A DNA stretch of 64,000 nt. Origin: Candidatus Omnitrophota bacterium. GTDB lineage: Bacteria > Omnitrophota > Gorgyraeia > Gygaellales > Profunditerraquicolaceae. Within the stretch, counting starts at the first letter, position 1, and each line of letters begins with the position of its first letter. The notes below the pieces were generated by a model. The model made no database searches and was not told the origin of the DNA. It was given only the letters and a program-made list of their open reading frames with translations. Positions 27,021 through 55,341 of the stretch are shown piece by piece. The DNA lies in contig JAKLGJ010000001.1 in assembly GCA_022710715.1 (NCBI GenBank), positions 298,041 to 362,040 of the forward strand. The letters run 5' to 3'. The translations under genes were made by a program, and so were the position numbers.

Positions 27021-28118
27021 ATGAAAAAAATACCCGTACAACTCGCGCATCGTTCCTACCAGATACTGGTGGGAGAAGGTCTGATCGACCGTCTGGGAGC
27101 GGTGCTTCCGCCGGCTGCGGTTTCAGGCCGGCGTGCCGCGTATTGTTTGAGCTTTCCCGTCATATGGAAGCGTTTCGGGCCGAAGGTAAAGCGCGCGCTG
27201 GCGCAGCAGGGCTATACCGTGCGCAGCCGGCTTGTTCCGGATACCGAACGCAGCAAGTCGTTATCCGTGGCGACGGCAGTGTTCAAGGATCTGGCGGCGT
27301 ATGACAGCAAACAGGCGGCGTTCATCATCGCTCTGGGCGGGGGAGTGATCGGCGATCTGGCCGGATTCGTGGCTTCTACGTATCGCCGGGGCATTCCGTA
27401 CGTGCAGGTGCCCACAACGCTGCTGGCCCAGGTGGATTCGAGCATCGGCGGTAAGACCGGCGTCGACCTGCCGGAAGGGAAGAATCTGGTCGGGACTTTT
27501 TACCAGCCGCGGCTGGTGGTCAGCGATGTCGCTGCGCTTTCCAGTTTGCCGGCGCGGCAGATGCGCAGCGGGCTGGCGGAAGTGATCAAATACGCGGTTC
27601 TGGCGGGCGGCGGATTATTCGCGTTCCTGGAAAAACATTTGCAGGATGTGCTCCGGTATGACCGGGCCAGTCTGGAAGCGGTGGTCGGCGCCTGCGCCCG
27701 GATAAAAGCCGGTATTGTCAGCCGTGACGAACAGGAGGAAAAGTCTTTACGCACGCATCTGAACTTCGGTCATACTATCGGTCACGCCATAGAATCGGCG
27801 GCGGGTTACCGCCGCTATACCCACGGTGAGGCAGTGGCTCTGGGAATGCTCTGTGCCTGCGATATCAGCCGGGCGCTGGGGCTGACCGGAGCGGATGCCG
27901 GATTGAAGATCGAGGGGTTGATCCGGCAGTCCGGTTTGCCGGTTGTCATCAAAGGTTTGAACGCCGCGCAGATCATCGCCGCGCATTACCACGATAAGAA
28001 GTTCAGCGGCGCGGAGAATCGCTTTGTGCTGGTCAGGGATATCGGGCGGACCGCGATCGTCAAGAACGTGCCGCTGCCGGTCATCGCCGCCGCAGTCAAG
28101 AACCGCCTCTCCACGTAA
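27021..28118 (+). CDS. aroB: 3-dehydroquinate synthase
   Basis: Dehydroquinate-synthase fold motifs (GGGVIGDLAGFVA, NFGHTIGHAIE). Confidence 0.8.
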   Translation: MKKIPVQLAHRSYQILVGEGLIDRLGAVLPPAAVSGRRAAYCLSFPVIWKRFGPKVKRALAQQGYTVRSRLVPDTERSKSLSVATAVFKDLAAYDSKQAAFIIALGGGVIGDLAGFVASTYRRGIPYVQVPTTLLAQVDSSIGGKTGVDLPEGKNLVGTFYQPRLVVSDVAALSSLPARQMRSGLAEVIKYAVLAGGGLFAFLEKHLQDVLRYDRASLEAVVGACARIKAGIVSRDEQEEKSLRTHLNFGHTIGHAIESAAGYRRYTHGEAVALGMLCACDISRALGLTGADAGLKIEGLIRQSGLPVVIKGLNAAQIIAAHYHDKKFSGAENRFVLVRDIGRTAIVKNVPLPVIAAAVKNRLST

Positions 28119-28173
28119 TTCCCTTCCCGCAACTCCTCCCAGCTTTTTTTCAATCGGCATAATTGCTTCGCAG

Positions 28174-28327
28174 GTCCCGGCAAGGAGTATTCCGCAGCAC
28201 CGTTCGGTTTTCCCCGCCGAGGAAAACCTCTCTTGGAGAATCTGCTCGCTCGTCCCTGAATGAAGCGCGGGGACACCCTGGCCGCTCGCATATCCTTACA
28301 TGCTGCTCCATACTCCTTGCCGGGACC
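28174..28327 (+). ncRNA. Candidate structured RNA or element, copy 1. A 17-bp outer stem and an 8-bp inner hairpin, then a conserved ~75-nt core shared with 43807..43955.
   Basis: Outer inverted repeat GTCCCGGCAAGGAGTAT/ATACTCCTTGCCGGGAC. Inner hairpin GGTTTTCC/GGAAAACC. Core CTTGGAGAA.CTGCTCGCTCGTCCCTGAA...GGGACACCCTGGCCGCTCGCAT..T.CATGCTGCT. Confidence 0.35.
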
Positions 28328-28407
28328 GACAAAGCAGCTGTGCAGATTAAAAAATTTCAGGAATGATTTGAAATTGATTGTGTATCGAGAAGAGTGGAGT
28401 GAGGGGG

Positions 28408-28971
28408 TTACCGGTTAACGAGGCGGATGGTTTTGCCGTTGTAGTCCAGCTCTACGCCTTCCATGGTGATCGCGATCACTACGGCGCCTTCGATGTTGTC
28501 GCCTACCTGTACGATGCGGTCATTGATCAAAGCAGTGCCATGGTCGGTGTTATCCGCGAAGAAAATGCCGTTGAGCATGAAATCGGGAACGCCTTGCTTG
28601 GTTTTGGCGATGGGAGTCTTTACCTCATGTTCACCGGAAGGAGTCAAGGTAACGGCATTTTTCAGATCGATAGGTTCGGCCTTGACCGCGGCTTTCCCGG
28701 ATTTAGAGGATTTCCTGGCGGCCGGTTTGCCGGATTTCTTCTCGGTACTTTTAGCGCCGGTCTTGGTCGTTTTGGTATTTTTTGAGGCCGCGAACTGTTT
28801 GCTTACCATGGGAAGCAGATAATCGAAGGCCAATTTCCCTACCACAAAACCGACCAGCACGAATAAAGCGATGACAACGTACGATTTTGAATCTTTCTGG
28901 GGTGATGTCGATTTCTGCTGCGGCGCTGCTGGTTGTTGCGTAGTTTGTGGAGAGACCGGTTTTTGTTCCAT
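28408..28971 (-). CDS. Membrane-anchored protein with a Lys/Pro/Gln-rich linker and a C-terminal GspB/PilP-like beta domain. This is the only clear minus-strand gene in the window.
   Basis: A TM helix (YVVIALFVLVGFVVG). C-terminal GIFFADNTDHGTALINDRIVQVGDNIEGAVVIAITMEGVELDYNGKTIRL. Start set at MEQKP because the longer ORF would read through the REP. Confidence 0.35.
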   Translation of the reverse strand: MEQKPVSPQTTQQPAAPQQKSTSPQKDSKSYVVIALFVLVGFVVGKLAFDYLLPMVSKQFAASKNTKTTKTGAKSTEKKSGKPAARKSSKSGKAAVKAEPIDLKNAVTLTPSGEHEVKTPIAKTKQGVPDFMLNGIFFADNTDHGTALINDRIVQVGDNIEGAVVIAITMEGVELDYNGKTIRLVNR

Positions 28972-29008
28972 AGGAAGTATTGTAACAAAAAACCGCATTT
29001 TGTCAAGT

Positions 29009-29761
29009 GGGGACGTTCCCCAAGGTACCACCCTTGAGCAAAGCGACAAAAATGTATGTTAGATTCCCGCTCTTCAAGCGTCTATTAAGTTAAAAAGGAG
29101 GGCGGTATGCCTAGAGGTCCCAGATTTCTGATGGATGACGGGTATTATCACATTGTAACGCGAGGAAATAACAAAAAGTTGCTGTTTATCGATGAATTCG
29201 ATTATGAAATGATGAAAAAAACTATCGCCAGATATTTAGAAAAGTTTAACATTGGCCTCGTGCATTACTGTTTGATGCCTAATCATCTTCATTGGGTGGT
29301 GCAAACATGGACAGCCCGAGATCTGCCGAAATTCATGCAGGGCGTATTGCAGGTGTATGCCGCATATTTCAAAGATAAATACAGCGCAGTCGGTTATTTG
29401 TTCCAGAATCGCTATAAAAGTTTGTTTATTGATAAAGAAAGTTACCTTTTGGAATGTGCGCGGTACATCGAAAGGAATCCTCTAAGGGCGAAATTGGTAA
29501 ATGACCTTCGCGAATATAAATACAGCAGTTTTCATTATTATGCCCTGGCGCAACCGGACGAATTGCTTAATAAAATCAATCCTTTATACAAGGATTTCGG
29601 GAGTAATCCGGTTGCACGTCAAGCTGCGTATTTGAAGTATGTGCTTCAAGAACGGCCGTACGATCAGATTGTTGATGATGTGTTCAGGATCAGGTGAATG
29701 TATAGTGCAGTTGCGATGAATATTGAAAAATTTCAGGGGTGGTACCTCGGGGAACGTCCCC
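29009..29761 (+). mobile_element. REP/RAYT unit: two inverted REP copies flanking a REP-associated tyrosine transposase gene (low GC)
   Basis: REP at 29009..29033 (+) and 29736..29761 (inverted) bracket the Y1-transposase-like gene at 29107..29697. The internal DNA is markedly AT-rich relative to its surroundings. Confidence 0.75.
29107..29697 (+). CDS. REP-associated tyrosine transposase (RAYT; IS200/IS605 TnpA-like Y1 HUH enzyme)
   Basis: HUH motif HLHWVV. Catalytic Tyr region YIERNPLRAKLV. Size about 196 aa. Flanked by inverted REPs. Confidence 0.75.
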   Translation: MPRGPRFLMDDGYYHIVTRGNNKKLLFIDEFDYEMMKKTIARYLEKFNIGLVHYCLMPNHLHWVVQTWTARDLPKFMQGVLQVYAAYFKDKYSAVGYLFQNRYKSLFIDKESYLLECARYIERNPLRAKLVNDLREYKYSSFHYYALAQPDELLNKINPLYKDFGSNPVARQAAYLKYVLQERPYDQIVDDVFRIR

Positions 29762-29884
29762 GATTTTTTTCTTGACAAAAAAATCTATTTAGGTTAAAAT
29801 GTGCCTCTATATTAGTAGTTAACCACAAGCATAACCTTCTGTAAATTATTCCGTTACAACAACTTGTAGAAAAGGAGCTTTTTT

Positions 29885-31045
29885 ATGGCAGAGTGGATAG
29901 GAATTGCACGACGCGCACGTAGATGTTATGGATTCGATGAAATTGCCCTTGTGCCCGGCTCGCAGACGGTCAATCCCCAGGAAGTGGATATGTCTTTTGA
30001 GTTCAACGGCAAGTCATTCAAGATCCCTATCATGGCAGCGGCTATGGACGGCGTGGTAGACGTGAAATTCGCGGTGGAGATGTCCAAACTTGGCGGTATC
30101 GCGGTTTTGAACCTGGACGGCATCCAGACCCGTTATGAGAATCCTGATGTGGTTCTGGAGAAGATCTCTAAGGCGTCCCCGCAGGAGTCCACCGAGCTGC
30201 TGCAGAAAATTTATGCTCAACCGATCAAAGAAAAGCTGGTGGGGAAGCGGATAAAGGAGATCAAACAGCAAAAGGGTACTGCGGTGGTCAGCTGTATCCC
30301 GGCGTCTGCCGAGCGTTTTGCCAAACTGGCAGTGCAGGCCGGTGTGGATATTTTTGTCGTGCAGTCTACGGTCACCAGCCTTAAGCATGTAACTACGCAG
30401 TATAAAGCCCTGGATCTGACCAAATTCGTGAAATCCGTGAAGGTCCCGGTGATTATAGGTAATTGCGTTACGTATGAAACTACCCTGGAATTGATGGATA
30501 CCGGGGCTGCCGGGCTGCTTGTCGGCGTAGGGCCGGGAGCTGCCTGTACTACCCGCGGCGTACTCGGGATCGGCGTGCCGCAGGTAACGACGACCGTGGA
30601 TGCGGCTGCAGCCCGCGATTTCTATCTCAAACGTACCGGCAGGTATGTTTCTATTATAACTGACGGTGGCATGAACCGCGGAGGCGATATCTGCAAGGCT
30701 TTTGCCTGCGGCGCGGACGCGGTGATGATCGGCTCCAGTTTTGCCCGGGCCATCGAAGCTCCCGGCAGAGGCTATCATTGGGGTATGGCTACTTCCAACG
30801 TTAATTTGCCGCGCGGAACGCGCATCTATGTCGGCACAACCGGTACGGTTAAAGAGATACTGTACGGGCCGGCCAAGGTGGATGACGGTTCGCAGAATCT
30901 CATGGGCGCGTTAATGACCTCGATGGGTTCATTAGGTGTGTCCAATTTAAGAGAAATGCATGACGTGGAGATCATTATCGCTCCGTCTATCCAGACCGAA
31001 GGCAAGGTTTTCCAGGTCGGGCAGCGGGTAGGAATGGGTAAATAA
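29885..31045 (+). CDS. IMP dehydrogenase/GMP reductase-family protein lacking a CBS pair (GuaB-related)
   Basis: IMPDH TIM-barrel motifs (IMAAAMDGV, GVGPGAACTTR, catalytic Cys region). Adjacent to guaA. Confidence 0.6.
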   Translation: MAEWIGIARRARRCYGFDEIALVPGSQTVNPQEVDMSFEFNGKSFKIPIMAAAMDGVVDVKFAVEMSKLGGIAVLNLDGIQTRYENPDVVLEKISKASPQESTELLQKIYAQPIKEKLVGKRIKEIKQQKGTAVVSCIPASAERFAKLAVQAGVDIFVVQSTVTSLKHVTTQYKALDLTKFVKSVKVPVIIGNCVTYETTLELMDTGAAGLLVGVGPGAACTTRGVLGIGVPQVTTTVDAAAARDFYLKRTGRYVSIITDGGMNRGGDICKAFACGADAVMIGSSFARAIEAPGRGYHWGMATSNVNLPRGTRIYVGTTGTVKEILYGPAKVDDGSQNLMGALMTSMGSLGVSNLREMHDVEIIIAPSIQTEGKVFQVGQRVGMGK

Positions 31046-42588: not shown

Positions 42589-43008
42589 ATGCCCGGACAA
42601 CCGACTGTACATATAACCAACAAGCAAAAGAAGATTCCCATTGATCGTGCGGCATTCAGAGCGCTGGTGCGGCGCGTCCTGGAAGCGGAGAAAGGTCCGC
42701 AACCCGGCCAGATCGGCGTCTGTTTCGTCGACGACCGGGCCATACGGCGACTCAACGCTCAATTCCATCACCGTGACGAGCCGACGGACGTTTTGTCTTT
42801 CCCGTTGAGCGGAACGGACAGAACGCTGGTCGCGGATATCGTCGTTTCCACCGAGACCGCCTGCCGGCAGGCCCGGGCGTATCGCAGTTCTCCCCGCCGG
42901 GAAACCGCTCTGTATGTGGTGCACGGACTGCTGCATCTGCTGGGGTACGACGATCATTCCCGTAAAGACCGGCTGCGCATGCAGCGCAGACAACGAAAGT
43001 ATCTCTAG
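42589..43008 (+). CDS. ybeY: rRNA maturation endoribonuclease YbeY
   Basis: HGLLHLLGYDDH zinc-binding motif. Confidence 0.8.
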   Translation: MPGQPTVHITNKQKKIPIDRAAFRALVRRVLEAEKGPQPGQIGVCFVDDRAIRRLNAQFHHRDEPTDVLSFPLSGTDRTLVADIVVSTETACRQARAYRSSPRRETALYVVHGLLHLLGYDDHSRKDRLRMQRRQRKYL

Positions 43009-43010
43009 CC

Positions 43011-43775
43011 ATGGCTATCCTTAAAACCCAGGCATTTGTGCTCAAACGCTATGATCTGCGGGAAACCTCGCTGCTGGTCAATTTTTATACCCGCGATTTC
43101 GGCAAGCTCACCGGCGAAATGAAAGGGATCCGCAAAGACCCCCGGAAATTCGCCAGTACCGTGGACAGCTTCTCCCTGAACGAGATCGTTTTCTACCAGC
43201 GCCGTAATTCTTCGGTGCATCTGATCAGCCAGTGCGACAGCTGCGAGCATTTCGGGCCGCTGCGGGAAAGTATACCCAAGATCGCCGCCGCGACGGTGAT
43301 GATGGACCTGCTCGATGCGGTCATGCCGCCTGAAGACAAGAATCCCGAGATCTTCGATCTGACCAGGGATGTGCTGACCGCTTTATGCACGGCCAGGGAT
43401 TTCGATAAATTACTGACTATTTTCAAAATCCGGGTGCTTTCCCTGTCGGGTTTTAAACCGCATCTTGATTCCTGCGTCATCTGCGGCAGGAAAGTATTCA
43501 TGCAGTGTAAGTTCAGCCTGAAGCTGGGAGGTTTGCTCTGCCCGCACTGCCTGGCCAGGGACGTGCAGGGTCGTACCATTTTCAGGGGCACGGTGGCGAC
43601 GATCATGCATATCGAAAAGAATACCGTCGGGGCAAATCTTACTCTGGGGATGAATCCGCAGATCAAACGCGAGCTGGAGGCGGTACTCAACGCTTTCCTG
43701 CATTTTCACGTGGGCAAAGAGCTTAAGTCGCAGCGGGTGATGCAGAGCCTGGAGCAGGCCGGCGCATTCACCTGA
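43011..43775 (+). CDS. recO: DNA repair protein RecO
   Basis: N-terminal OB fold (QAFVLKRYDLRETS) and a C-terminal Cys4 zinc motif (CVICG...CPHC). Confidence 0.8.
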   Translation: MAILKTQAFVLKRYDLRETSLLVNFYTRDFGKLTGEMKGIRKDPRKFASTVDSFSLNEIVFYQRRNSSVHLISQCDSCEHFGPLRESIPKIAAATVMMDLLDAVMPPEDKNPEIFDLTRDVLTALCTARDFDKLLTIFKIRVLSLSGFKPHLDSCVICGRKVFMQCKFSLKLGGLLCPHCLARDVQGRTIFRGTVATIMHIEKNTVGANLTLGMNPQIKRELEAVLNAFLHFHVGKELKSQRVMQSLEQAGAFT

Positions 43776-43806
43776 AGCTGTCAGAGCGCCTGGTTAGCGG
43801 CGAGTA

Positions 43807-43955
43807 TGTTCTAAAGCATCACCGCTCGTCCTGCCCACCGTGCAGGACTCGCTTGGAGAAGCTGCTCGCTCGTCCCTGAAGCAATAGCGGGACACCCTGG
43901 CCGCTCGCATCTTCTACATGCTGCTTTAGAACACACTCGCCGCCAATCGAGTATT
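43807..43955 (+). ncRNA. Candidate structured RNA or element, copy 2. A ~20-bp outer stem and a 7-bp inner hairpin (GTCCTGC/GCAGGAC), then the same conserved core as 28174..28327.
   Basis: Outer IR GGCGAGTATGTTCTAAAGCA / TGCTTTAGAACACACTCGCC. The core is about 85% identical to copy 1. Confidence 0.35.
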
Positions 43956-44000
43956 CTGGCAGCTTACTATGCGGTCGAGGAGAATGGAGGGATCGAATAT

Positions 44001-44936
44001 ATGAAAATCGCGATCATCGGGCCGGGAGCGCTGGGCAGTCTTTTCGCCGCGCTGTTGACCAAGCACAAATCCAAAGATAACGAGATCTGGCTGCTGGATA
44101 AGGATGAGAAACGCGCGGTCCGTCTGAACCGTCAGGGGATCGCAGTGGAGGGAGTAGCCGGCAACTGGCAGGCGGCGGTCAAGGTGACCGCGGATCCGGC
44201 AGGTATCGGCACGTCCGATCTGGTCATCCTCTGCGTCAAGTCCTATGATACCAAGGCGGCGATGACGCGGGCGCAGGCATTGATCGGCGACGCGACTGCG
44301 GTGTTGACCGTGCAGAACGGCATCGGCAATGTCGAGCTGATCGGGGAGGTCGCCGGTCCCGAGAAAGTCATCGGCGGGGTGACCAATCTGGGAGTGACGC
44401 TGCTGGAAGCCGGTAAGATCCGGTATTGCGGCAAAGGGGATACGGTCATCGGAAAGATAGACGGTAAAACTTCGGTTCAGATGCGGGCAATCCGCGAATT
44501 GTTTAACGGCGCGGGGCTCGATACCAGGATATCCCAGGATATCAAAGGTTTCCTCTGGTCGAAGCTGGTGATCAACGCGGGGATCAATCCGCTGACCGCA
44601 CTGACCCGTTTGTCCAACGGCAAACTGCTGGATTATCCCGGAGCCAGGAAACTCCTGCGCGAGGCGGTAACCGAAGCGGTAAAGATCGCCAAGCGCAAAC
44701 GCATCAAACTGCTCTACGATGATCCGCTCGCCAAGGTTGAAGCGGTATGCGAGGCGACCGCGGATAATATGTCTTCCATGCTGCAGGATGTTTTGCACGC
44801 CAAGCGTACCGAGATCGACGCCATCAACGGAGTGGTGGTGCGTTTCGGCCAGGAATTGGGGGTTACCGTGCCGGTTAATTCGACGCTGGTGGATCTGATC
44901 AAAACCATCGAATCCAGCTACTCCGCGCAGGAGTAG
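44001..44936 (+). CDS. panE: 2-dehydropantoate 2-reductase
   Basis: MKIAIIGPGALGSLFAALL Rossmann N-terminus. ApbA family. Confidence 0.75.
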   Translation: MKIAIIGPGALGSLFAALLTKHKSKDNEIWLLDKDEKRAVRLNRQGIAVEGVAGNWQAAVKVTADPAGIGTSDLVILCVKSYDTKAAMTRAQALIGDATAVLTVQNGIGNVELIGEVAGPEKVIGGVTNLGVTLLEAGKIRYCGKGDTVIGKIDGKTSVQMRAIRELFNGAGLDTRISQDIKGFLWSKLVINAGINPLTALTRLSNGKLLDYPGARKLLREAVTEAVKIAKRKRIKLLYDDPLAKVEAVCEATADNMSSMLQDVLHAKRTEIDAINGVVVRFGQELGVTVPVNSTLVDLIKTIESSYSAQE

Positions 44937-44961
44937 CGGGCGGGTTCGTTCTCATATAGTC

Positions 44962-46668
44962 ATGAAAAACGCTCTTGTCGCTGAAATTTTTCGCAGTATC
45001 GCGCAGATTCTGCAGATTCGCGGGGATAATCGCTTTCGCATCCGGGCCTATGAGCGCGCCGCGGCAAATGTCGAAGGGTATGCCGAAGACATCGAATCCG
45101 TGGCCCGGCAGGGGCGGCTGCAGGAGATCCCGGGTATAGGCGAGGATTTGTCCGAAAAGATCGAAGAGATCGTGCGCTCCGGGAAATTGAAGTTCCTGGA
45201 TGAGCTTAAACGGGAAATTCCTTCCGGCGTTCTCGACTTGTTGTCCGTTCCCACCGTTGGTCCCAAAACCGCCCAGATACTTTACCGGCAACTGCATATC
45301 GACAGCATCGCCGCGCTGCGCCACGCCATCGAAGCGCATCAACTGCAGGCGCTCGCCGGGTTCAAAGAAAAAACCATAGAGAATATCCGCAAAGGCGTCG
45401 CTCTGGTGGAAAAAAGCCGGGAACGCATGACCTTGCATCAGGCGATCCAGGTATCCGAAAAATTCGTCAGCGCCCTCAAAAAGCTTCCCCGGGTGGAGGA
45501 GATCGTCTGCGGCGGGAGCCTGCGCCGCTGTAAGGAGAGCGTGCGCGATATCGATATCCTGATCGTTTCGGGCAATCCGCAGGCAGTGATGGACGCTTTT
45601 TGCGCTCTGCCGATGGCCAAAGAGATCCTGGCGCACGGGCAGACCAAAGCTTCGGTACGCACGCCGGCCGGAGTGCAGGTGGATTGCCGGGTAGTGGAGA
45701 AAAAAGCTTTCGGCGCGGCGCTGGTGTATTTTACCGGTTCCAAAAATTTCAATATCAAATTGCGGATGCTCGCCCAGAAGAAGAAGGCCAAGATCAACGA
45801 GTACGGCCTTTTCAAAGGCGAGCGTTTCATCGCCGGAAGGACAGAAGAAGAGCTGTTTAAAGCCCTGGGCATGCAGTTCGTCGATCCCGAGATCCGCGAA
45901 GATACCGGCGAGATCGAGCTGGCCCTGCAGGGGCGTCTGCCTCGGTTGGTCGAGCACAAAGACCTCAAAGGCGATCTGCATATGCATTCGGCCTGGTCCG
46001 ACGGGATCAGCAGCATCGAAGAGATGGCCCGGTCCGCCCGCAGCCTCGGCTACAGCTATATCGCGGTCACCGATCACTCCCAGGGGTTGAAAGTAGCCAA
46101 CGGGTTAAGCCCGGCGTCCCTGCTTAAAAAACGCAAAGAGATCGACGCGCTCAACCGGCGCCTGCGCGGTGTGCGCGTTTTATTCGGCGCGGAAGTGGAT
46201 ATCGATGCCGAAGGCCGGCTGGATTATCCGGACGCGATTCTCAAGGAATTCGAGATCGTGGTCGGGGCCATACACTCCGGGTTTAAACAACCGGCCGGGC
46301 AGATCACCCGCCGTCTTATCCGGGCCTGCGAAAATAAGTATGTGCATATCATCGCGCATCCGACGGGAAGGTTGATCGGGTCGAGGGAAGCCTATGCGTT
46401 CGACATGGAAGCGGTGCTGCGCAGCGCCGCCAGAACCCGCACCGCGCTGGAGATCAATTCTTTTCCCGACCGCATGGATCTCAACGATACGCATTGCCGC
46501 ATGGCCAAAGAAGCGGGGGTGCGCATCAGCATCAATACCGATTCGCACGCCGCGGATCAATTGACCAACATCCGTTACGGCCTGGCCATGGCCCGGCGGG
46601 GCTGGCTGGAAGCCGCAGATGTTCTCAACACGCTGCCCCTGGACCAGCTTCTCCAGGAGCTGAAATGA
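44962..46668 (+). CDS. polX: Family X DNA polymerase with a C-terminal PHP domain
   Basis: Pol-beta-like N-terminus (GIGEDLSEKIEEIV, RRCKESVRDIDIL) plus a PHP C-terminus (DLHMHSAWSDG). Confidence 0.8.
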   Translation: MKNALVAEIFRSIAQILQIRGDNRFRIRAYERAAANVEGYAEDIESVARQGRLQEIPGIGEDLSEKIEEIVRSGKLKFLDELKREIPSGVLDLLSVPTVGPKTAQILYRQLHIDSIAALRHAIEAHQLQALAGFKEKTIENIRKGVALVEKSRERMTLHQAIQVSEKFVSALKKLPRVEEIVCGGSLRRCKESVRDIDILIVSGNPQAVMDAFCALPMAKEILAHGQTKASVRTPAGVQVDCRVVEKKAFGAALVYFTGSKNFNIKLRMLAQKKKAKINEYGLFKGERFIAGRTEEELFKALGMQFVDPEIREDTGEIELALQGRLPRLVEHKDLKGDLHMHSAWSDGISSIEEMARSARSLGYSYIAVTDHSQGLKVANGLSPASLLKKRKEIDALNRRLRGVRVLFGAEVDIDAEGRLDYPDAILKEFEIVVGAIHSGFKQPAGQITRRLIRACENKYVHIIAHPTGRLIGSREAYAFDMEAVLRSAARTRTALEINSFPDRMDLNDTHCRMAKEAGVRISINTDSHAADQLTNIRYGLAMARRGWLEAADVLNTLPLDQLLQELK

Positions 46669-46766
46669 GGGGACAGGAGCTGAAATGAGGGGACAGGTCC
46701 ACCCAAAACAGCTCGTCGAGAAAATCGGACAGATGTGTCCCCTTCGTAAATTGCTGTGTCCCCTTC
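46669..46766 (+). repeat. GGGGACA-family repeat copy D, with a 20-nt tandem duplication spanning the polX stop (46655-46674 equals 46675-46694)
   Basis: AGGAGCTGAAATGAGGGGAC occurs twice in tandem, then GGTCCACCCAAAACAGCTCGTCGAGAAAATCGGACAGATGTGTCCCCTTCGTAAATTGCTGTGTCCCCTT. Confidence 0.7.
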
Positions 46767-46783
46767 GCAAAACGCAAGCCGCA

Positions 46784-47731
46784 ATGCCAGGTTATCCACA
46801 GGCCTTCCGGGACTGCCTGTGGATAACTTTTGCGCTGCTGGTTTTCATCGGTTGCCGGCCGCAGGAGCCGGTGATGCACCGTCAGACCCGGGTGATGATG
46901 GGCACGTTCGTAGAAGTGGTTTCCCCTGACCCGCGCGCCGGAGATATCGCTTTTAAAGAAATCGGACGCGTTGAAAATCTGTTGAGCAAATACAAACCCG
47001 ACAGCGAGATCGCGCAGCTCAACAAACTCGGACGGCTCAAGGTTTCCCCGGCCACCTGGTTCATTCTGACCAAGGCCAAAGAATTCTGGTACGCTACCGA
47101 CGGAGCTTTTGATATTACCGTCGGGCCACTCATGGATATCTGGGGTTTCACCGGGAAGCAATTCCGCATCCCTTCCGACGGAGAAATTACCGCGGCGCGG
47201 CAGTCGATCGGCGCGAATAAAATTATTTTTCACGAAGCTAATAGTGTGGTAGAATTGGGTATTCCAGGGATGAAAATCGATCTGGGCGCCGTGGCTAAAG
47301 GATACGCGGTTGATTGCGCAGTGCAGGCTTTGCGCGCCGCCGGTATCTCCAGCGCGTTAATTAACGCCGGAGGCCAGATCTATTGCCTGGGCGTCCGAAG
47401 CAGCACGCCCTGGCGCGTGGCTATCCGCGATCCCCGTGGTAAGGGAACGTCGAAGTCCGTCGATATGACGGACAAAGCCATCGCTACATCCGGCGATTAC
47501 GAGCAGTATTTCATCGTCGGCGGCAGGCGCTATGCGCATATCATGGACCCGAAAACCGGCTATCCGTCCGAGTCCGGGGTGGTTGCGGTGACCGTGATCG
47601 CCGATGACGGATTAACCGCGGATTTTCTGTCCACCGCTATATTTGTACTGGGTAAAACAAAGGGCCTGGCGTTAGTGAAACGTTTCCCCGGCGCCAGGGT
47701 TACCATAGAAGGTCCGCATGAACCAGATTAA
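46784..47731 (+). CDS. apbE: FAD:protein FMN transferase (ApbE family) lipoprotein
   Basis: Lipobox (LLVFIGC) plus ApbE motifs (MGTFVEVV, DLGAVAKGYAVD). Confidence 0.75.
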   Translation: MPGYPQAFRDCLWITFALLVFIGCRPQEPVMHRQTRVMMGTFVEVVSPDPRAGDIAFKEIGRVENLLSKYKPDSEIAQLNKLGRLKVSPATWFILTKAKEFWYATDGAFDITVGPLMDIWGFTGKQFRIPSDGEITAARQSIGANKIIFHEANSVVELGIPGMKIDLGAVAKGYAVDCAVQALRAAGISSALINAGGQIYCLGVRSSTPWRVAIRDPRGKGTSKSVDMTDKAIATSGDYEQYFIVGGRRYAHIMDPKTGYPSESGVVAVTVIADDGLTADFLSTAIFVLGKTKGLALVKRFPGARVTIEGPHEPD

Positions 47732-49061
47732 ACCTGATTACTCCAAACCGACTCCTAATCCCGTCTTCACTTATTTCTCCGCGTTCATGGACCAGGAAGT
47801 GCTGGATACGCGGGGAGAGCGGATCGGCCGGCTCTACGATATCATCGTCAAGGTCGCGCAGATCTATCCCCAGTCCACCAGCCTGATCGTGCGCAAAGGA
47901 TTCCCCAACCATAAATACGCGCTGGTCCCCTGGCAGAACGTTTCGCAGCTCAATCCCAGAGAGATCATTCTCAATATAGAAAAATCGAGCCTGGTTTTCG
48001 CCGAGAAGCACGACAATAAAGACGAATTGAGCCTGCGTCGGGATATCCTCGACCAGCAGGTGGTCGATACCTACAACCACAAAGTCATCCGGGTCAACGA
48101 TATCCATTTCCTGCGCGTGGAGAACAGCCTTACCGTGGCGCATGTGGATATAGGCGGCCGCGGACTGGTGCGCCGGCTGGGGTTCGAGAAATGGGTCGAC
48201 CTGATATGCAAGCTTATCCATCCCGGCGCGCGGTACCTGAAACTCGAGCGATTGATCCCCTGGAAATACATCCAGCCGCTTTCCATCAATCCCGCGAGCA
48301 TGACCATCAAGATCAACGTGCCCCAGAAACAGCTGACCAATATCCCCGCGGCCGATCTGGGCGAGATACTCCAGGACCTGCCTTTGACCGACCAGGTGGC
48401 TTTGTTCAAATCCCTCGATCTGAACACCCGGGCCAAGGTGTTCATGAACGTCGATTTCAAGACCCAGCATTTCCTCATCGAGGAGCTTGGTTTCGCCGAG
48501 ATCGCCACGATCATCAACGTCATTCCTTCGGACGAAGCCACGGATTTCCTGGAGAAACTTCCCAAAGAAGAGACCAAAGAATTCCTGAAGATCATGGAGA
48601 GCAAGCAGGCCAAGAAACTCTCGGAGCTGCTGGGGTATTCCAGCGATTCCGCCGGCGGTTTGATGACCACGGAATACCTTTCCTGCGGCAAAGGCCAGAC
48701 CGTCGGCCAGGTGATCCAGTATATCAAGGAAAAAAGTTTCAAGGTCGAGCCGGCGCAGTATGTCTATCTGGTGGATAACGAAAACAAACTTCTGGCTTCG
48801 GTGAATTTCAAACGTTTGATGCTCGCCGCCAACGAAGAACCGGTGGAGAAAGTGGCTTTTCCGAAAACATACTTCGTCAAGCTCGATTCCAGCGTCAAGG
48901 AAGTGGCGTATCTGATGGAAAAGTATAAATATTACGCCATTCCGGTCGTCGACGAGCACAATGTGCTTAAGGGCATCGTCACGGTGGACGATATTTTGAG
49001 CCAGGTCATCGCTATCGCCTGGCGCCGGCTCAAGAAGATCAACATAACGCCAAAACAGTAA
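47718..49061 (+). CDS. Soluble MgtE-N-domain plus tandem-CBS-domain protein with no transmembrane domain, preceded by a PRC-barrel-like N-terminus
   Basis: MgtE_N-like helical region (ILQDLPLTDQVALFKSLD...) and two CBS motifs. It ends directly after the CBS pair. The stop lies 2 nt before the Nramp start. Confidence 0.55.
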   Translation: MNQIKPDYSKPTPNPVFTYFSAFMDQEVLDTRGERIGRLYDIIVKVAQIYPQSTSLIVRKGFPNHKYALVPWQNVSQLNPREIILNIEKSSLVFAEKHDNKDELSLRRDILDQQVVDTYNHKVIRVNDIHFLRVENSLTVAHVDIGGRGLVRRLGFEKWVDLICKLIHPGARYLKLERLIPWKYIQPLSINPASMTIKINVPQKQLTNIPAADLGEILQDLPLTDQVALFKSLDLNTRAKVFMNVDFKTQHFLIEELGFAEIATIINVIPSDEATDFLEKLPKEETKEFLKIMESKQAKKLSELLGYSSDSAGGLMTTEYLSCGKGQTVGQVIQYIKEKSFKVEPAQYVYLVDNENKLLASVNFKRLMLAANEEPVEKVAFPKTYFVKLDSSVKEVAYLMEKYKYYAIPVVDEHNVLKGIVTVDDILSQVIAIAWRRLKKINITPKQ

Positions 49062-49063
49062 CA

Positions 49064-50308
49064 ATGGGCAAACTTAAGAATTTCTGGCGGGAAATCGTTA
49101 TTTTTTTATCCATACTCGGACCGGGGCTGATCACCGCCAACGTGGACAACGACGCCGGCGGCATCACCACGTATTCCGTAGCCGGAGCGCATTTCGGTTT
49201 TTCCATGCTCTGGGCGTTCGTCCCGATCATTATCGCTTTGATCGTGATCCAGGAGATGTCCAGCCGCATGGCCGTGGTTACCGGCAAAGGGCTGGCTGAC
49301 CTGATCCGGGAAGAGTTCGGGGTCAAGATCACTTTTTACGCCATGCTCGGGCTGGTGTATTCGAACGTATTCAACACCATCGCCGAATTCGCCGGCATCG
49401 CCGCCAGCGCGGACCTGCTGGGGATCAACAAGTACGCGATGGTTCTCGGCAGCGCGGTGTTTGTCTGGTTTCTGATCGTCAAGGGCACGTACAAGTCGAT
49501 CGAGAAAATATTCCTGATCTTCTGTTTCTTTTACGTGGCTTATGTGATCTCGGCTTTTTATACCAAGCCGGACTGGCATCAGGTGGCCCGGGATATCGTC
49601 CGGCCCCAGATCACCTGGAGCAGGGAGTATCTGCTTTTGCTCATCGCGGTGATCGGTACCACGATCACGCCCTGGATGCAGTTTTACCAGCAGTCATCCG
49701 TAGTGGAAAAAGGGATCAAGCTGGCTGATTATAAGTATAGCAAGCTCGACGTGATCTGCGGTGCGTTCGTGGTTAACATCGTGGCTTTTTTCATTGTGCT
49801 GGTCTGCGCGAACACGTTGTTCAAGAGCGGCATCAGGATCGAAACCGCGCGCGACGCGGCCCTGGCGCTGCGGCCGCTGGCGGACAACTGGAGTTATTAT
49901 CTTTTCGCTGTGGGGTTGTTCAACGCTTCTTTATTCGCCGCCTGCATCCTGCCGTTATCCACCGCTTACTGTGTCTGCGAAGGAATGGGCTGGGAGCAGG
50001 GTGTGAACAAAAAATTCCGGGAAGCCCCGCAATTTTACACGCTCTATACCATCACTATCGCTATCGCCGCGCTGGTAGTGCTTATGCCGAATATCAAGCT
50101 GGTGCCTTTGATGATCAGCGCGCAGACCAAGAACGGCATCCTTTTACCGTTCGTGCTCATCTTCATGCTCTTGCTGGTGAATAACAAACGGCTGATGGGC
50201 CAGTACACCAATTCCCGCATTTATAATATCATCGCGATCACGACTGTGGTGCTATTGATCGGCATGACCATAGTTCTGCTGGTTACCAGCCTGATGGGAA
50301 TAAGTTGA
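49064..50308 (+). CDS. mntH: NRAMP-family divalent metal transporter
   Basis: Nramp consensus motifs (GPGLITANVDNDAGGITTYS, MPH-region) and about 11 TM helices. Confidence 0.8.
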   Translation: MGKLKNFWREIVIFLSILGPGLITANVDNDAGGITTYSVAGAHFGFSMLWAFVPIIIALIVIQEMSSRMAVVTGKGLADLIREEFGVKITFYAMLGLVYSNVFNTIAEFAGIAASADLLGINKYAMVLGSAVFVWFLIVKGTYKSIEKIFLIFCFFYVAYVISAFYTKPDWHQVARDIVRPQITWSREYLLLLIAVIGTTITPWMQFYQQSSVVEKGIKLADYKYSKLDVICGAFVVNIVAFFIVLVCANTLFKSGIRIETARDAALALRPLADNWSYYLFAVGLFNASLFAACILPLSTAYCVCEGMGWEQGVNKKFREAPQFYTLYTITIAIAALVVLMPNIKLVPLMISAQTKNGILLPFVLIFMLLLVNNKRLMGQYTNSRIYNIIAITTVVLLIGMTIVLLVTSLMGIS

Positions 50309-50309
50309 T

Positions 50310-51149
50310 ATGGACGTTCAGAAAATAACCGTGCAAGATATCCGCTCGCTGAAAGGCAGGCGCAAGATCACCTGCCTGACCGCTTATGACTATCCTTTTG
50401 CCGTTTTAGTGGATAAAGCGGGCATAGATATCGTGCTGGTGGGTGATTCCCTGGCCAATGTGGTCCTGGGCCTGGAATCGACCACCCAGGTCGGGATGAC
50501 CGAAATGCTTTATCATTCCAAAGCGGTCAGCCGGGCAGTGAAGCGCGCTTTGATCGTAGGCGATATGCCTTTCGAGGCTTATCAGGTCAATCCGAAAGAC
50601 GGTTTGGCCAATGCCCGCCGTTTTATCGATGAGGCGGGATGCGATTGCGTGAAAGTGGAGTGGTTCGACCATTGTATCGATGTTGTGCGCGCTCTGGTGG
50701 GGGAGAATATCGGAGTCATGGGCCATATCGGGTTGACGCCCCAGACTGCCGATAAGCTCGGCGGGTTCAAAGTGCAGGGTAAGGATGCGCAAGCTGCGCA
50801 GCGCTTGATCGAGCAGGCGCTGGAACTGGAGAAAGCCGGTTGTTTTTCCCTGGTGCTGGAGTGCGTGCCGGACCGCATCTCCGGGTTGATCACTGCCCGG
50901 CTGAAAATTCCTACCATCGGTATCGGCGCCGGACCGGAGTGCGACGGCCAGGTGCTGGTGCTGCACGACGCGCTCGGGTTGTTTGACCGCTATATTCCCA
51001 AATTCGTGAAAAAGTTTATCGACCTGTCGCCGCTCATTCTCGGGGGGCTGGAGGATTTCAAAAACCAGGTCCAGACCGGCGTTTTCCCGGATAAGCCGCA
51101 TTCTTTCAGTATCAGCGAAGATGAGTGGAGCAAGCTTAAAAATATATAG
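50310..51149 (+). CDS. panB: 3-methyl-2-oxobutanoate hydroxymethyltransferase
   Basis: KITCLTAYDYPFA...VLVGDSLANVVLG. Confidence 0.85.
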   Translation: MDVQKITVQDIRSLKGRRKITCLTAYDYPFAVLVDKAGIDIVLVGDSLANVVLGLESTTQVGMTEMLYHSKAVSRAVKRALIVGDMPFEAYQVNPKDGLANARRFIDEAGCDCVKVEWFDHCIDVVRALVGENIGVMGHIGLTPQTADKLGGFKVQGKDAQAAQRLIEQALELEKAGCFSLVLECVPDRISGLITARLKIPTIGIGAGPECDGQVLVLHDALGLFDRYIPKFVKKFIDLSPLILGGLEDFKNQVQTGVFPDKPHSFSISEDEWSKLKNI

Positions 51150-51220
51150 CCAATTCCCCGATTTTATGCTACAATTACTTTTCCTGTAAAACCCGAATAC
51201 ACACTTCCTAATTAATATCT

Positions 51221-52534
51221 ATGGCAGACCTGATGGAAAAAATAGTTTCGCTGTGCAAGCGCCGGGGGTTCATTTTCCCGGGCAGCGATATTTACGGCGG
51301 GCTGGCGAATTCCTGGGATTACGGGCCGTACGGCGTGGAGTTGAAGAACAACATCAAGCGCGCCTGGTGGAAGGCCAACGTTTACCTGCGCAACGACATG
51401 CTGGGCATGGACGCGGCCATCCTGATGCATCCGAAGACCTGGGAAGCCTCCGGCCATGTGGAAAATTTTTTCGATCTCAAGGCGGACTGCAAAGGCTGTC
51501 ATAAACGTTTCAAGGTCGCGGATCTCAAGGATCGGAAAAAATGTCCGGAATGCGGCGGAGAGCTTACCGAGGCCCGGCAGTTCAACCTGATGTTCAAGAC
51601 GCATTCCGGCCCGGTTGAAGATGCGTCGACTGTGGTGTATTTGCGGCCGGAAACCGCCCAGGGCATGTTCGTGAACTTTCCGAATATCCTCGATTCCCGG
51701 CATCCCAAGCTGCCTTTCGGCCTGGCGCAGATCGGTAAATCATTCCGTAACGAGATCACGCCCGGCAATTTCACCTTCCGTACCCGCGAATTCGAACAGA
51801 TGGAGATAGAGTATTTCTGCCGGCCGGAAGAGTCGGAAAAGGTGTACGAAGAATGGGTGGCGGCGCGCAAGCAGTGGTATCTGGACCTGGGGATGCACCC
51901 GGAGCATATCCGTTTCCGCGCTCATGAGAAGGACGAGCTGGCGCATTACGCCAGAGCCTGCACCGACGTGGAATACGCGTTCCCCTGGGGCTGGTCGGAA
52001 CTTGAAGGCATCGCCAACCGCACGGATTTCGATTTAAAGCAGCACGCGCAGCACAGCGGCAAGGACCTGCGTTATTTCGACGAAGTCAAGAAAGAGCGTT
52101 TTTATCCTTACATCATCGAGCCTTCGGGCGGAGTGGACCGGTGTTTGCTGGCGTTTTTAGTCGACGCTTATACCGAGGAACCGGTCAAAGAAGAAGTTCG
52201 CGCGTTGTTGAAACTGCACAAAGACCTGGCCCCGATCAAAGCGGCGGTGCTGCCGCTGTTGAAGAACCGGCCGGAACTGGTCGAGACAGCAAAGAAGCTG
52301 GCCTGGGACCTGAAGAAATCTTTTGTCACCGTGTACGACGACACCGCGGCTATCGGAAAGCTCTACCGCCGGCAGGATGAAGTGGGCACGCTCTATTGCA
52401 TCACCGTGGACGTGCAGAGTCTTGAAGACAAGCAGGTGACTGTGCGCGACCGGGACAGCATGCAGCAGGAACGTATCAGTATCGATAAAGTCAAAGATTA
52501 TCTAACCGATAAGTTGAACGAGACCGCAGGTTAA
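51221..52534 (+). CDS. glyQS: Glycine--tRNA ligase (class II, dimeric alpha2 type)
   Basis: RRGFIFPGSDIYGGLANSWDYGPYG with an insertion Cys cluster. Confidence 0.85.
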   Translation: MADLMEKIVSLCKRRGFIFPGSDIYGGLANSWDYGPYGVELKNNIKRAWWKANVYLRNDMLGMDAAILMHPKTWEASGHVENFFDLKADCKGCHKRFKVADLKDRKKCPECGGELTEARQFNLMFKTHSGPVEDASTVVYLRPETAQGMFVNFPNILDSRHPKLPFGLAQIGKSFRNEITPGNFTFRTREFEQMEIEYFCRPEESEKVYEEWVAARKQWYLDLGMHPEHIRFRAHEKDELAHYARACTDVEYAFPWGWSELEGIANRTDFDLKQHAQHSGKDLRYFDEVKKERFYPYIIEPSGGVDRCLLAFLVDAYTEEPVKEEVRALLKLHKDLAPIKAAVLPLLKNRPELVETAKKLAWDLKKSFVTVYDDTAAIGKLYRRQDEVGTLYCITVDVQSLEDKQVTVRDRDSMQQERISIDKVKDYLTDKLNETAG

Positions 52535-52578
52535 GGGTTAGCCAGCGGCCTTCTTCACACTAAGGAGGTAACAAGGAA

Positions 52579-55341
52579 ATGGCAAAGAAGTATGTTTACT
52601 CGTTTGGAGGCGGGAAAGCTGACGGCAATGAATCGATGAAAAACCTGTTGGGCGGCAAAGGCGCGAACCTCGCGGAAATGGCCGGCCATCCGGAGCTCAA
52701 GCTGCCGGTTCCTCCCGGATTCACCCTTACTACCGAAGTATGCACCTACTATTATCAGCATAAGAAAACCTATCCCAAAGAGCTCAAAGGGCAGGTCGAG
52801 ATCGCCCTGGCCAAGGTCGAAAAGATCATGGGCCGTAAATTCGGCGATCCGTCGGATCCGCTTCTGGTTTCGGTCCGTTCCGGCGCGCGTAAATCCATGC
52901 CCGGAATGATGGAGACCGTCCTGAACGTCGGACTGACCGAGAAGACCATTCCCGGTTTGATCAAACAGTCCGGCGGCAACGAGCGGTTCGTTTATGACGC
53001 CTACCGTCGTCTGATCATGATGTATTCCGACGTAGTCATGGAAAAGGCCGCGGGCATCGAGCCGGCCGACGACATGGGCATCCGCAAGCAGCTGGAGCGG
53101 ATCATGGATAAGGTCAAAAAGGAGAAAGGCTACAAGTCCGACACCGATCTGACTACCGCGGACCTGAAGCTGCTCTGCACCCAGTTCAAGCTCAAGATCA
53201 AGGAAGTGCTCAAGAAAGAATTTCCCGACGAGCCCCTGGAGCAGATGTGGGGCGGCGTTGGCGCGGTGTTTTCCTCCTGGAACGGCAAACGCGCGATTTC
53301 CTACCGTCGTATCGAAGGTATCCCCGACGAGTGGGGAACCGCGGTCAACGTCCAGACCATGGTGTTCGGCAACATGGGCAATGATTCCGCTACCGGCGTG
53401 GCTTTTTCGCGCAACCCCGGCAACGGCGAGAATTATTTTTACGGCGAATACCTGATCAACGCTCAAGGGGAAGATGTGGTGGCCGGTATCCGTACGCCCG
53501 CTCCCATCAACAGCGTTTCCCAGTCCGAGCATAATAAAGACCTGACCACCCTGGAAGCGGCCATGCCCGCGTTATATAAGGAGCTGGCCTCGTACAAAAC
53601 CCGCCTGGAAAAGCATTACCGCGACATGCAGGACATCGAGTTCACCATCCAGAAGGGCAGATTGTTCATGCTGCAGTGCCGCGTGGGCAAACGTAACGGT
53701 CCGGCCGCGGTGCGTATGGCGGTGGACATGGTCAAAGAGAAATTCATCACCAAAGAAATGGCGGTGACCCGGGTGACTCCGGCGCAGCTGGATGAACTTT
53801 TGCATCCGATCATCAATCCCAAAGTGGAACTGACCCAGAAAGCCATCGCCAAAGGTTTGCCTGCCGGTCCCGGCGGCGCCTGCGGCCAGATCGTGTTTTC
53901 TTCGAACGACGCGGTGGAATGGTTTAAACAGGGCAAGAAAGTGATCCTGGTGCGCGAAGAGACCAATCCGGAAGACGTGGAAGGTATGCGCGCGGCCGAA
54001 GCGATCCTGACTGCCCGCGGCGGCATGACTTCGCACGCGGCTTTGGTCGCCCGCGGCTGGGGAAAATGCTGTATCGTGGGTTGCAGCGCCATGCACGTGG
54101 ATCTGGGAAAGAAAGAAGTGCATGTGGAAGGCGGCAAAGTGCTCAAAGAGGGGGATTGGATCACTCTTAACGGCACCAAAGGCAACGTCTACGAAGGCAA
54201 GCTGGAAATGATGGACGCTTCCGAAGAGAACAAGCTGCTCATGGAATTTCTGGCTATGTGCGGACAGATCAAGAAACTGGGTATCCGCACCAACGCCGAA
54301 TCTCCGGCAGACGCGGCTAAAGCGCGTTCGTTCGGAGCGGAAGGTATCGGTTTGTTCCGTACCGAGCATATGTTCTACGGCAAGGGTTCGGATGAGCCGT
54401 TATTCTTATTAAGGAAAATGATCGTTTCCAAGACCGAAGCGGAACGCCGCAAGGCTTTGGATGAACTCTACCCGTTTGTGAAGAAAGACGTCAAGGGCAC
54501 CCTGGAAGCCATGGACGGGTTCCCGGTGGTGATCCGCCTGCTCGATCCGCCGCTGCACGAATTCGTGCCCCGCGATCGCGCTAAACTGGAACAGCTGGCC
54601 AGGGAACTGAATATTTCCATGGAAGAGCTCTCCAAGCGGGCCGAAGGTCTGCATGAATCCAACCCGATGATGGGCCATCGCGGCGTGCGTTTAGGCGTGA
54701 CCTATCCGGAAGTGAGCGAAATGCAGATCCGGGCGATCCTGGAATCCGCGGCGGAATTGCTGCAAGCCGGCAAGAAACCGTATCCGGAGATAATGGTCCC
54801 GGTTGTATGTGACGTCAAGGAACTTCAGGATCAACAGGTCCTCGCCAAAAAAGTCTACGCTGAAGTCCTGGCGAAATACAATCTCAAGAAGATCAAGCAT
54901 ATGTTCGGCACCATGATCGAGATCCCGCGCGCGGCGTTTGTCGCGGATCAACTGGCTACCGTGGCGGAATTCTTCTCCTTCGGTACCAACGACATGACCC
55001 AGATGGGTTTTGGTTTCTCCAGAGACGATATCGGCGGATTCCTGCCGGAATATCTCAAAAAAGGCATCCTGCCCGAGGATCCGTTCCAGTCCATCGATCA
55101 GGTCGGGATCGGGGAGATCATCAAGCTGGGTATCCAGCGGGGGCGTTCCACCAATAAGGCCCTGGAAGTGGGTATCTGCGGCGAGCATGGCGGCGAACCC
55201 AAATCCGTGGAGTTCTGCCATAACGTGGGCATGGATTACGTGTCCTGCTCACCGTTCAGAGTGCCGATTGCGAAATTAGCTGCTGCGCAGGCTGCGCTGA
55301 AGGATCAGCCGGCTAAAAAGAAAGCGGCAAAGAAAAAATAA
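52579..55341 (+). CDS. ppdK: Pyruvate, phosphate dikinase
   Basis: GGKGANLAEM and the phospho-His region GGMTSHAALVARGWGKCC over 920 aa. Confidence 0.9.
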   Translation: MAKKYVYSFGGGKADGNESMKNLLGGKGANLAEMAGHPELKLPVPPGFTLTTEVCTYYYQHKKTYPKELKGQVEIALAKVEKIMGRKFGDPSDPLLVSVRSGARKSMPGMMETVLNVGLTEKTIPGLIKQSGGNERFVYDAYRRLIMMYSDVVMEKAAGIEPADDMGIRKQLERIMDKVKKEKGYKSDTDLTTADLKLLCTQFKLKIKEVLKKEFPDEPLEQMWGGVGAVFSSWNGKRAISYRRIEGIPDEWGTAVNVQTMVFGNMGNDSATGVAFSRNPGNGENYFYGEYLINAQGEDVVAGIRTPAPINSVSQSEHNKDLTTLEAAMPALYKELASYKTRLEKHYRDMQDIEFTIQKGRLFMLQCRVGKRNGPAAVRMAVDMVKEKFITKEMAVTRVTPAQLDELLHPIINPKVELTQKAIAKGLPAGPGGACGQIVFSSNDAVEWFKQGKKVILVREETNPEDVEGMRAAEAILTARGGMTSHAALVARGWGKCCIVGCSAMHVDLGKKEVHVEGGKVLKEGDWITLNGTKGNVYEGKLEMMDASEENKLLMEFLAMCGQIKKLGIRTNAESPADAAKARSFGAEGIGLFRTEHMFYGKGSDEPLFLLRKMIVSKTEAERRKALDELYPFVKKDVKGTLEAMDGFPVVIRLLDPPLHEFVPRDRAKLEQLARELNISMEELSKRAEGLHESNPMMGHRGVRLGVTYPEVSEMQIRAILESAAELLQAGKKPYPEIMVPVVCDVKELQDQQVLAKKVYAEVLAKYNLKKIKHMFGTMIEIPRAAFVADQLATVAEFFSFGTNDMTQMGFGFSRDDIGGFLPEYLKKGILPEDPFQSIDQVGIGEIIKLGIQRGRSTNKALEVGICGEHGGEPKSVEFCHNVGMDYVSCSPFRVPIAKLAAAQAALKDQPAKKKAAKKK

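Follow-up and report, generated by a model that had tools for sequence, protein, structure and literature searches.

Transporters related to Nramp proteins have been found beside a gene for a portion of the MgtE Mg2+ channel before. Shin et al. (2014; PLoS Genet 10:e1004429; PMC4072509) gave the NrmT clade (NRMT in what follows) its name, reported that most NrmT genes adjoin a gene with homology to MgtE's N-terminal cytoplasmic domain, and speculated that this partner provides 'cytoplasmic feedback regulation of transport' or has a chaperone role. NRMTs are a fourth class of bacterial Mg2+ importers, apparently uncoupled, and the question they raise is how overload is avoided. The characterised member EleNRMT, from Eggerthella lenta, has been reported to be uncoupled from protons, and the purified protein transports Mg2+ and Mn2+ in liposomes by itself (PMC8806188). 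Here we describe one such gene pair in a stretch of 64,000 nucleotides (nt), called the window below, from a Candidatus Omnitrophota bacterium (GCA_022710715.1, contig JAKLGJ010000001.1, positions 298,041-362,040, forward strand). A gene for a pore-less, MgtE-like accessory protein of 447 amino acids (aa) lies at 47718..49061 on the + strand (identified from the open reading frame (ORF), Pfam, NCBIfam, hydropathy and its homologue family), and a gene for an NRMT-clade, Nramp-related transporter of 414 aa lies at 49064..50308 on the same strand (PF01566; EleNRMT is the best solved match). The two genes are a typical example of the known module of an NRMT and an MgtE-like partner. The original prediction, made from the letters of the window alone, took the arrangement to be undescribed; what it observed was correct, but both the arrangement and the regulatory idea have been known since 2014 (PMC4072509).

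The transporter belongs to the NRMT clade on sequence criteria, with all of the defining features present. It matches the Nramp family PF01566 over profile positions 1-357 of 357 (E 9.8e-101), and its best solved relative is EleNRMT (7qia; E 1.1e-115, ungapped, 46% identical), compared with about 1e-18 for classical MntH; the NCBIfam MntH model gives 131 bits against a cutoff of 430. The predicted label of Nramp/MntH transporter was therefore right as to the Nramp family and wrong as to a generic MntH. Two motifs set NRMTs apart, DxxG in place of the classical DxxN on alpha1 and TxxA/T in place of the classical AxxM on alpha6, as does the replacement of both alpha6b histidines of the proton pathway (PMC8806188). 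In the window transporter, D30-A-G-G33 aligns to EleNRMT D55 and G58 on alpha1, T199-T-I-T202 aligns to T224 and A227 on alpha6 (a TxxT variant, without the soft Met ligand), W204 and Q209 occupy the positions of W229 and N234 on alpha6b, and Q354 on alpha10 matches Q379. The classical MntH motifs, DPGN on alpha1 and A-x-x-M-P-H on alpha6, are absent, and the window reads DAGG and TTITPW in their place. DAGG is found in 78 of 78 paired transporters of related loci, and the TxxT variant is rare among them (2 of 72). Since the characterised members of the NRMT clade transport Mg2+, the pairing is functionally coherent rather than a mixture of unrelated parts, and the earlier description of the MgtE-like protein as joined to an 'unrelated' metal transporter does not hold.

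The accessory protein (47718..49061) is made up of a PRC barrel, a second beta-rich block, an MgtE_N domain, a CBS pair and a short basic tail, all encoded on the + strand. The PRC-barrel domain spans residues 20-87 (47775..47978; PF05239, 31.1 bits against a cutoff of 21.2), and in the AlphaFold2 (AF2) model the predicted local distance difference test (pLDDT) of this segment is mostly 76-88, with 58 at residues 41-50. The second conserved N-terminal block, residues ~100-195 (48015..48302), is delimited by the invariant columns of a family alignment (A1) and contains the invariant motif LRRDILDQQVVD..N.KV.RVNDIH. It is poorly modelled (pLDDT 34-67) and has no Pfam match, bPH_6 staying below threshold at E 0.039; aligned to the first PRC unit with hhalign it gives a weak match of 64% probability over 41 columns to the first half of the barrel, and it is possibly a second, degenerate PRC-like unit. 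The MgtE_N domain follows at residues 210-310 (48345..48647; PF03448, E 9e-23) and the CBS pair at residues ~316-430 (48663..49007; a Pfam CBS call at 383-429 together with alignments to MgtE). Pfam does not call the first CBS repeat, which has diverged too far; the repeat is covered by the ungapped alignment to solved MgtE CBS pairs and shows the beta-alpha-beta-beta-alpha pattern in the AF2 model. A C-terminal helix at the position of the MgtE plug helix occupies residues 423-440 (48984..49037; AF2 and alignment to 2yvy). Solved MgtE cytoplasmic domains match the protein (8gps at E 1e-30, 8gpv, 2yvy and 2oux), and such domains are also its best fold matches in Foldseek, where only the MgtE-like half aligned. 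The AF2 model of the whole protein has a predicted template modelling score (pTM) of 0.34, and its per-domain features alone were used. The domain content foreseen by the original prediction, a PRC-like N-terminus, MgtE_N and tandem CBS repeats, is thus borne out by Pfam, by the alignments to MgtE structures and by the AF2 pattern.

The membrane half of MgtE is absent, because the match to the TIGR00400 mgtE profile covers only positions 23-254 of 450 and stays below its cutoff (158.5 bits against 232.75). Pfam finds no PF01769, the five-helix membrane domain that makes up the MgtE pore, in the accessory protein, whose maximum Kyte-Doolittle hydropathy over 19 residues is 1.56, so that it has no segment of transmembrane (TM) grade, compared with about 11 such segments in the Nramp protein. 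The prediction that 47718..49061 stops short of any transmembrane helix was correct. It had also named a frameshift or a detached MgtE pore encoded elsewhere as what would overturn it; no frameshift was found, and the membrane domains of four MgtE channels, used as tblastn queries, matched nothing in the 64-kb window (all E > 1). The relatives that align with the accessory protein from end to end, ~445 aa long, fill at least 2388 clusters (E < 1e-10).

The two genes form a conserved pair. In a survey of related loci that took one genome per species (80 loci, almost all from Omnitrophota, 79 of them with room downstream), an NRMT gene lies directly downstream of the partner in 78 of the 79. The junctions are tight: 50 of 74 overlap and another 15 have a gap of 0-10 nt (65 of 74 together), with a median of -4. 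In the window the accessory gene ends in TAA at 49059-49061, a two-letter spacer 'CA' follows, and the NRMT ATG starts at 49064 (junction 49059..49066, + strand, from sequence reading), which agrees with the predicted distance of 2 nt between stop and start. Reading of the junction found no Shine-Dalgarno-like sequence before the NRMT ATG, which suggests that the NRMT is translationally coupled to the accessory gene. The accessory gene itself has a Shine-Dalgarno-like AGAAGG at 47707..47712 (+ strand), 5 nt before its ATG and within the 3' end of apbE, and an NRMT start so placed, without a ribosome-binding sequence of its own, fits coupled and roughly stoichiometric synthesis of the two proteins. 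The order panE-(polX)-apbE-partner-NRMT-panB-glyS is kept in most loci whose partner is at least 58% identical to that of the window. In distant loci (partner identity 40-51%) the wider synteny is lost and the pair is retained, and this persistence of the pair where the apbE/panB synteny is gone is the pattern of a functional unit. The sole orphan among the 79 loci is a divergent 429-aa member (L076, 4995-6284; 40% identity), which has no NRMT beside it; next come an ATP-grasp-like gene and one for a KamA-like radical SAM protein.

The pair also occurs outside Omnitrophota. In Eggerthellaceae, to which the source of the solved EleNRMT belongs, a Paraeggerthella NRMT that is 91% identical to EleNRMT is preceded by a 450-aa gene with PRC, MgtE_N and CBS domains that ends 4 nt upstream. 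On an Alicyclobacillus plasmid the pair keeps this order, its genes 10 nt apart, and plasmids of Cellulomonas (L085, 1290-4236) and Citrobacter freundii (IncHI1B; L086, 1467-4179) carry it in reversed gene order. The latter two pairs adjoin an ArsR/SmtB regulator and a heavy-metal P-type ATPase, and the Citrobacter pair also a Tn3 transposase; carriage on plasmids beside metal genes and Tn3 implies that the module is mobile and at times travels within metal-resistance islands. The paired transporters from outside Omnitrophota have DAGG or DAGA on alpha1 and TT[IV]APW on alpha6. Across the Eggerthellaceae and plasmid lineages the partners are 24-29% identical and the transporters 30-49%. Conservation of the gene pair had been proposed as a check on the original prediction, and the pair passes it, both in the survey (78 of 79 loci) and in other phyla, down to these lowest partner identities.

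The N-terminal extension links the partners to a group of full-length channels. Searched alone, the ~200-aa module matches 1171 representative clusters, mostly proteins of 415-450 aa with the architecture of the partner, and a subset of ~600 aa consists of complete MgtE channels with PRC, MgtE_N, two CBS repeats and the PF01769 membrane domain (P0303, P0304, P0319, P0342 and P0373 in the representative library). The PRC-containing extension is a family-wide trait and is not peculiar to this window, and by these sequence relationships the pore-less partners are siblings of a PRC-extended MgtE lineage. The term 'PRC' does not occur in the 2025 preprint on MgtE classification, which makes no mention of such a subclass of MgtE.

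Residues of MgtE that bind ligands are partly kept in the partner. We mapped them through the ungapped alignment of the accessory protein to T. thermophilus MgtE (TtMgtE; 2yvy), using the site assignments of Maruyama et al., 2018 for Mg2+ (PMC5882242) and Tomita et al., 2017 for ATP (PMC5529423); the alignment of the N domain to TtMgtE is weak, and an equivalent of E59 (Mg7) could not be aligned. The two aspartates of the Mg4 site (D91/D247 in TtMgtE, D272/D425 in the window) and the Mg6 ligand (D95, here D276) are kept and are invariant in alignments A1 and A2. The Mg5 ligands are lost (D226/D250 to K404/S428), and the charge is reversed at both Mg2 (E258 to R436) and Mg3 (D259 to R437). The ATP site is similarly mixed: Y170 corresponds to Y348, where the family consensus is Phe, so that the ring is kept and the hydroxyl lost in most members; a basic residue is kept at R187 (K365) and an aromatic one at F227 (Y405), and D188 and N203 are lost (R366 and F381). 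At the plug position the motif A434-W435-R436-R437 is invariant in alignment A1, and pore-less partners in general have short, non-acidic tails that often read A-W-[RK]-[RK], whereas in the PRC-extended MgtE channels the plug is acidic ("EEATEDIS"), as it is in TtMgtE. On a Paraeggerthella-type contig (L081, 3644-4996) the partner ends in a helix of TM grade, IVGGIIGAVLFLVLYTMVLFQIIG, with a 19-residue Kyte-Doolittle value of 2.59, and the Eggerthellaceae partner is probably tail-anchored rather than soluble. The exchange of the acidic plug for a tail of W, R and K, or for a TM-grade helix in Eggerthellaceae, suggests that the partner acts at the membrane surface.

These features lead us to favour, with some reservation, a reading in which the module combines a Mg2+-transporting, proton-uncoupled NRMT with a soluble MgtE-like partner that confers Mg2+-dependent negative feedback. 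The regulatory role that we infer for the partner was first proposed as a hypothesis by Shin et al. (2014). The partner would dimerise through its CBS pair, as MgtE does, and cytosolic Mg2+ would bind at the retained site that bridges the N domain and the CBS pair (D272/D425, equivalent to Mg4) and at D276 (equivalent to Mg6). Occupancy by Mg2+ would close the N domain onto the CBS pair, the basic and aromatic tail (or the tail-anchor helix in Eggerthellaceae) would hold the partner at the membrane, and the compact, Mg2+-bound form may then restrain the NRMT from its cytoplasmic side. The outcome would be negative feedback on a Mg2+ uptake that is otherwise ungated and uncoupled. Because EleNRMT reportedly works uncoupled from protons, control after translation would be useful. 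It is also the obvious layer of control that remains, because neither the window nor any of 14 related loci yielded an M-box riboswitch: no M-box or other riboswitch matched Rfam in 43000-52000 at E <= 1, and the search of the 14 loci returned no riboswitch, its sole match being a tRNA in L081, which lies ~600 nt upstream of the partner there. An M-box upstream is frequent but not universal in the family, and A. capsulatum has none (PMC4072509).

More specifically, the partner could be a trans-acting, Mg2+-dependent gate, in which the regulatory half of MgtE has split off to serve a transporter outside the MgtE superfamily, an NRMT with the LeuT fold, as its subunit, the plug has been re-engineered, and the PRC module serves as a further input. 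Under this proposal the acidic pore plug would have turned into a Trp/Arg (or tail-anchored) element that docks on the membrane or the transporter. We regard this version as tentative, plausible in outline but somewhat more likely to be wrong than right.

Several observations weigh against feedback by the partner. The ligands of Mg5, Mg2 and Mg3 are lost and the ATP site is only partly kept, and a member of the family exists that has no adjacent NRMT (L076). EleNRMT transports in liposomes in the absence of any partner (PMC8806188), and Ca_c0685, Ca_c3329 and Acp2977 complement Mg2+ uptake without theirs (PMC4072509). In the sole published test, co-expression of Acp2976 with Acp2977 from A. 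capsulatum gave no further rescue (PMC4072509). The A. capsulatum member, moreover, transports mainly Mn2+ (PMC4072509), and the ion that is sensed need not be Mg2+. Given the partly kept ligands, the NRMTs that work alone and the null result of co-expression, the 'Mg2+/nucleotide-sensing gate' of the original prediction is not established. What stands of its modular regulatory arrangement is the conserved functional unit, seen in 78 of 79 loci and in several phyla; the sensing and gating part of that claim is putative.

Other roles for the partner can be weighed against the same evidence. It could regulate the NRMT by reading an adenine nucleotide or another CBS ligand, and so the energy state, instead of Mg2+, or be a CBS/PRC protein that is co-transcribed but acts on another target. 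Adenosine ligands are common for CBS pairs, and the stacking aromatic (F227, here Y405) and the basic residue (R187, here K365) of the ATP site are kept, but R366 and F381 stand in place of D188 and N203, the contacts to ribose and adenine. The ~200 aa that the PRC barrel and second block add, also found on MgtE channels, and the orphan member without an NRMT (L076) speak for this alternative as well; the near-universal adjacency and the overlapping stop and start codons across phyla nonetheless point to a function held in common with the NRMT. We consider this alternative unlikely.

A metal chaperone or buffer that takes over Mg2+ or Mn2+ where it leaves the NRMT on the cytoplasmic side and passes it on, without gating transport, is the alternative that Shin et al. 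themselves suggested (PMC4072509). Some acidic metal-binding residues are indeed kept, and some plasmid copies sit in metal-homeostasis islands (ArsR/SmtB, heavy-metal P-type ATPase). There is, however, little rationale for a chaperone when free Mg2+ in the cell is millimolar, the sites that are kept are the bridging sites between domains that drive the conformational change of MgtE rather than high-affinity sites, and no known chaperone motifs were found in the partner, all of which makes this role improbable. Little probability attaches, too, to a purely structural subunit that would serve the folding, assembly, stability, oligomerisation or localisation of the NRMT without sensing anything. 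Tight translational coupling, which suggests stoichiometric co-production, and a tail that looks directed to the membrane are what such a subunit might show, but NRMTs fold and work alone in B. subtilis and when purified, and a subunit of this kind would not explain why the Mg4 and Mg6 ligands are conserved. Finally, the view of the ORF at 47718..49061 as an MgtE that has been truncated or frameshifted (as a pseudogene or through an assembly error) and whose pore is encoded elsewhere has nothing in its favour beyond a superficial likeness to the N-terminal half of MgtE and is ruled out for practical purposes by thousands of full-length relatives of ~445 aa, by the absence of an MgtE TM domain from the window, with the next gene beginning 2 nt on, and by a tail that is specifically remodelled and conserved.

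The pair lies in a tightly packed run of genes on one strand at 44001-52534, which comprises panE, polX (Pol beta-like plus PHP), apbE, the partner, the NRMT, panB and glyS. The upstream neighbour apbE, of the flavin transferase family (46685..47731, + strand; ORF and Pfam), overlaps the start of the accessory gene by 14 nt with its 3' end, and the downstream neighbour panB (50310..51149, + strand; ORF and Pfam) begins 1 nt past the NRMT stop; apbE and panB probably share a transcription unit with the pair in this clade. A scan of 43500-52700 for promoters and terminators gave counts not above those of shuffled sequence and nothing between the genes, and is uninformative. A 454-aa ORF without a stop codon spans the whole partner gene on the - strand (47700-49064) and is most likely a shadow ORF, since homology strongly supports the + strand. 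Elsewhere in the window, the content of guanine and cytosine dips to 0.468 in the interval 28001-30000, against a background of ~0.55, which could mark an island or a region of RNA genes.

For the NRMTs as a class, the MgtE-like partner is the obvious candidate regulator. The analysis of the window shows a module that occurs widely, with very tight coupling of its genes and, in Omnitrophota, no riboswitch. It also supplies residue-level leads on the feedback hypothesis: the kept Mg2+ ligands D272, D276 and D425, the AWRR tail and the N-terminal PRC module. The partner is not treated in the Nramp and MgtE literature of 2022-2026 that could be searched, which included the EleNRMT paper, the Slc11 phylogeny of Cellier (2022), a 2026 review of Mg2+ transporters and the 2025 classification of MgtE architectures. 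The adaptations described here (Mg4 and Mg6 kept, Mg2, Mg3 and Mg5 lost, the reversed charge of the plug and the PRC-MgtE sister group) are likewise absent from the searchable literature.

Set beside the known systems, the pair resembles the operons of Shin et al., 2014, among them C. acetobutylicum Ca_c0685 and A. capsulatum Acp2976/Acp2977, in which an MgtE-cytoplasmic-like gene likewise stands immediately upstream of an Nramp-related transporter; the likeness to the A. capsulatum pair extends to the lack of an M-box in both. It differs from these operons in its host, a member of Omnitrophota, and in its setting, flanked by apbE and panB in a run of genes that overlap or abut. Shin et al. 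call the partner a 'small protein' and make no mention of the ~200-aa PRC extension or of the remodelled plug helix. The transporter shares with EleNRMT (PDB 7qia, 7qic; Ramanadane et al., 2022; eLife 11:e74589) the residues D30/G33/T199/W204/Q354, equivalent to D55/G58/T224/W229/Q379, and departs from it in having Thr202 for Ala227 and Q209 for N234; that study characterised the transporter alone and did not discuss a partner. The partner, for its part, has the MgtE_N domain, the CBS pair, the helix at the plug position and the Mg4 and Mg6 ligands of TtMgtE (2yvy/2zy9; 8gps and 8gpv for solved MgtE relatives), but it lacks PF01769, has the ligands of Mg2, Mg3 and Mg5 replaced and the ATP site only in part, and carries the PRC module in addition. 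Further counterparts in architecture are the PRC-extended MgtE channels (P0304, P0373, P0342), which share the ~180-200-aa module at 30-37% identity together with MgtE_N and the CBS pair, and which, unlike the partner, retain the acidic plug helix and the membrane domain.

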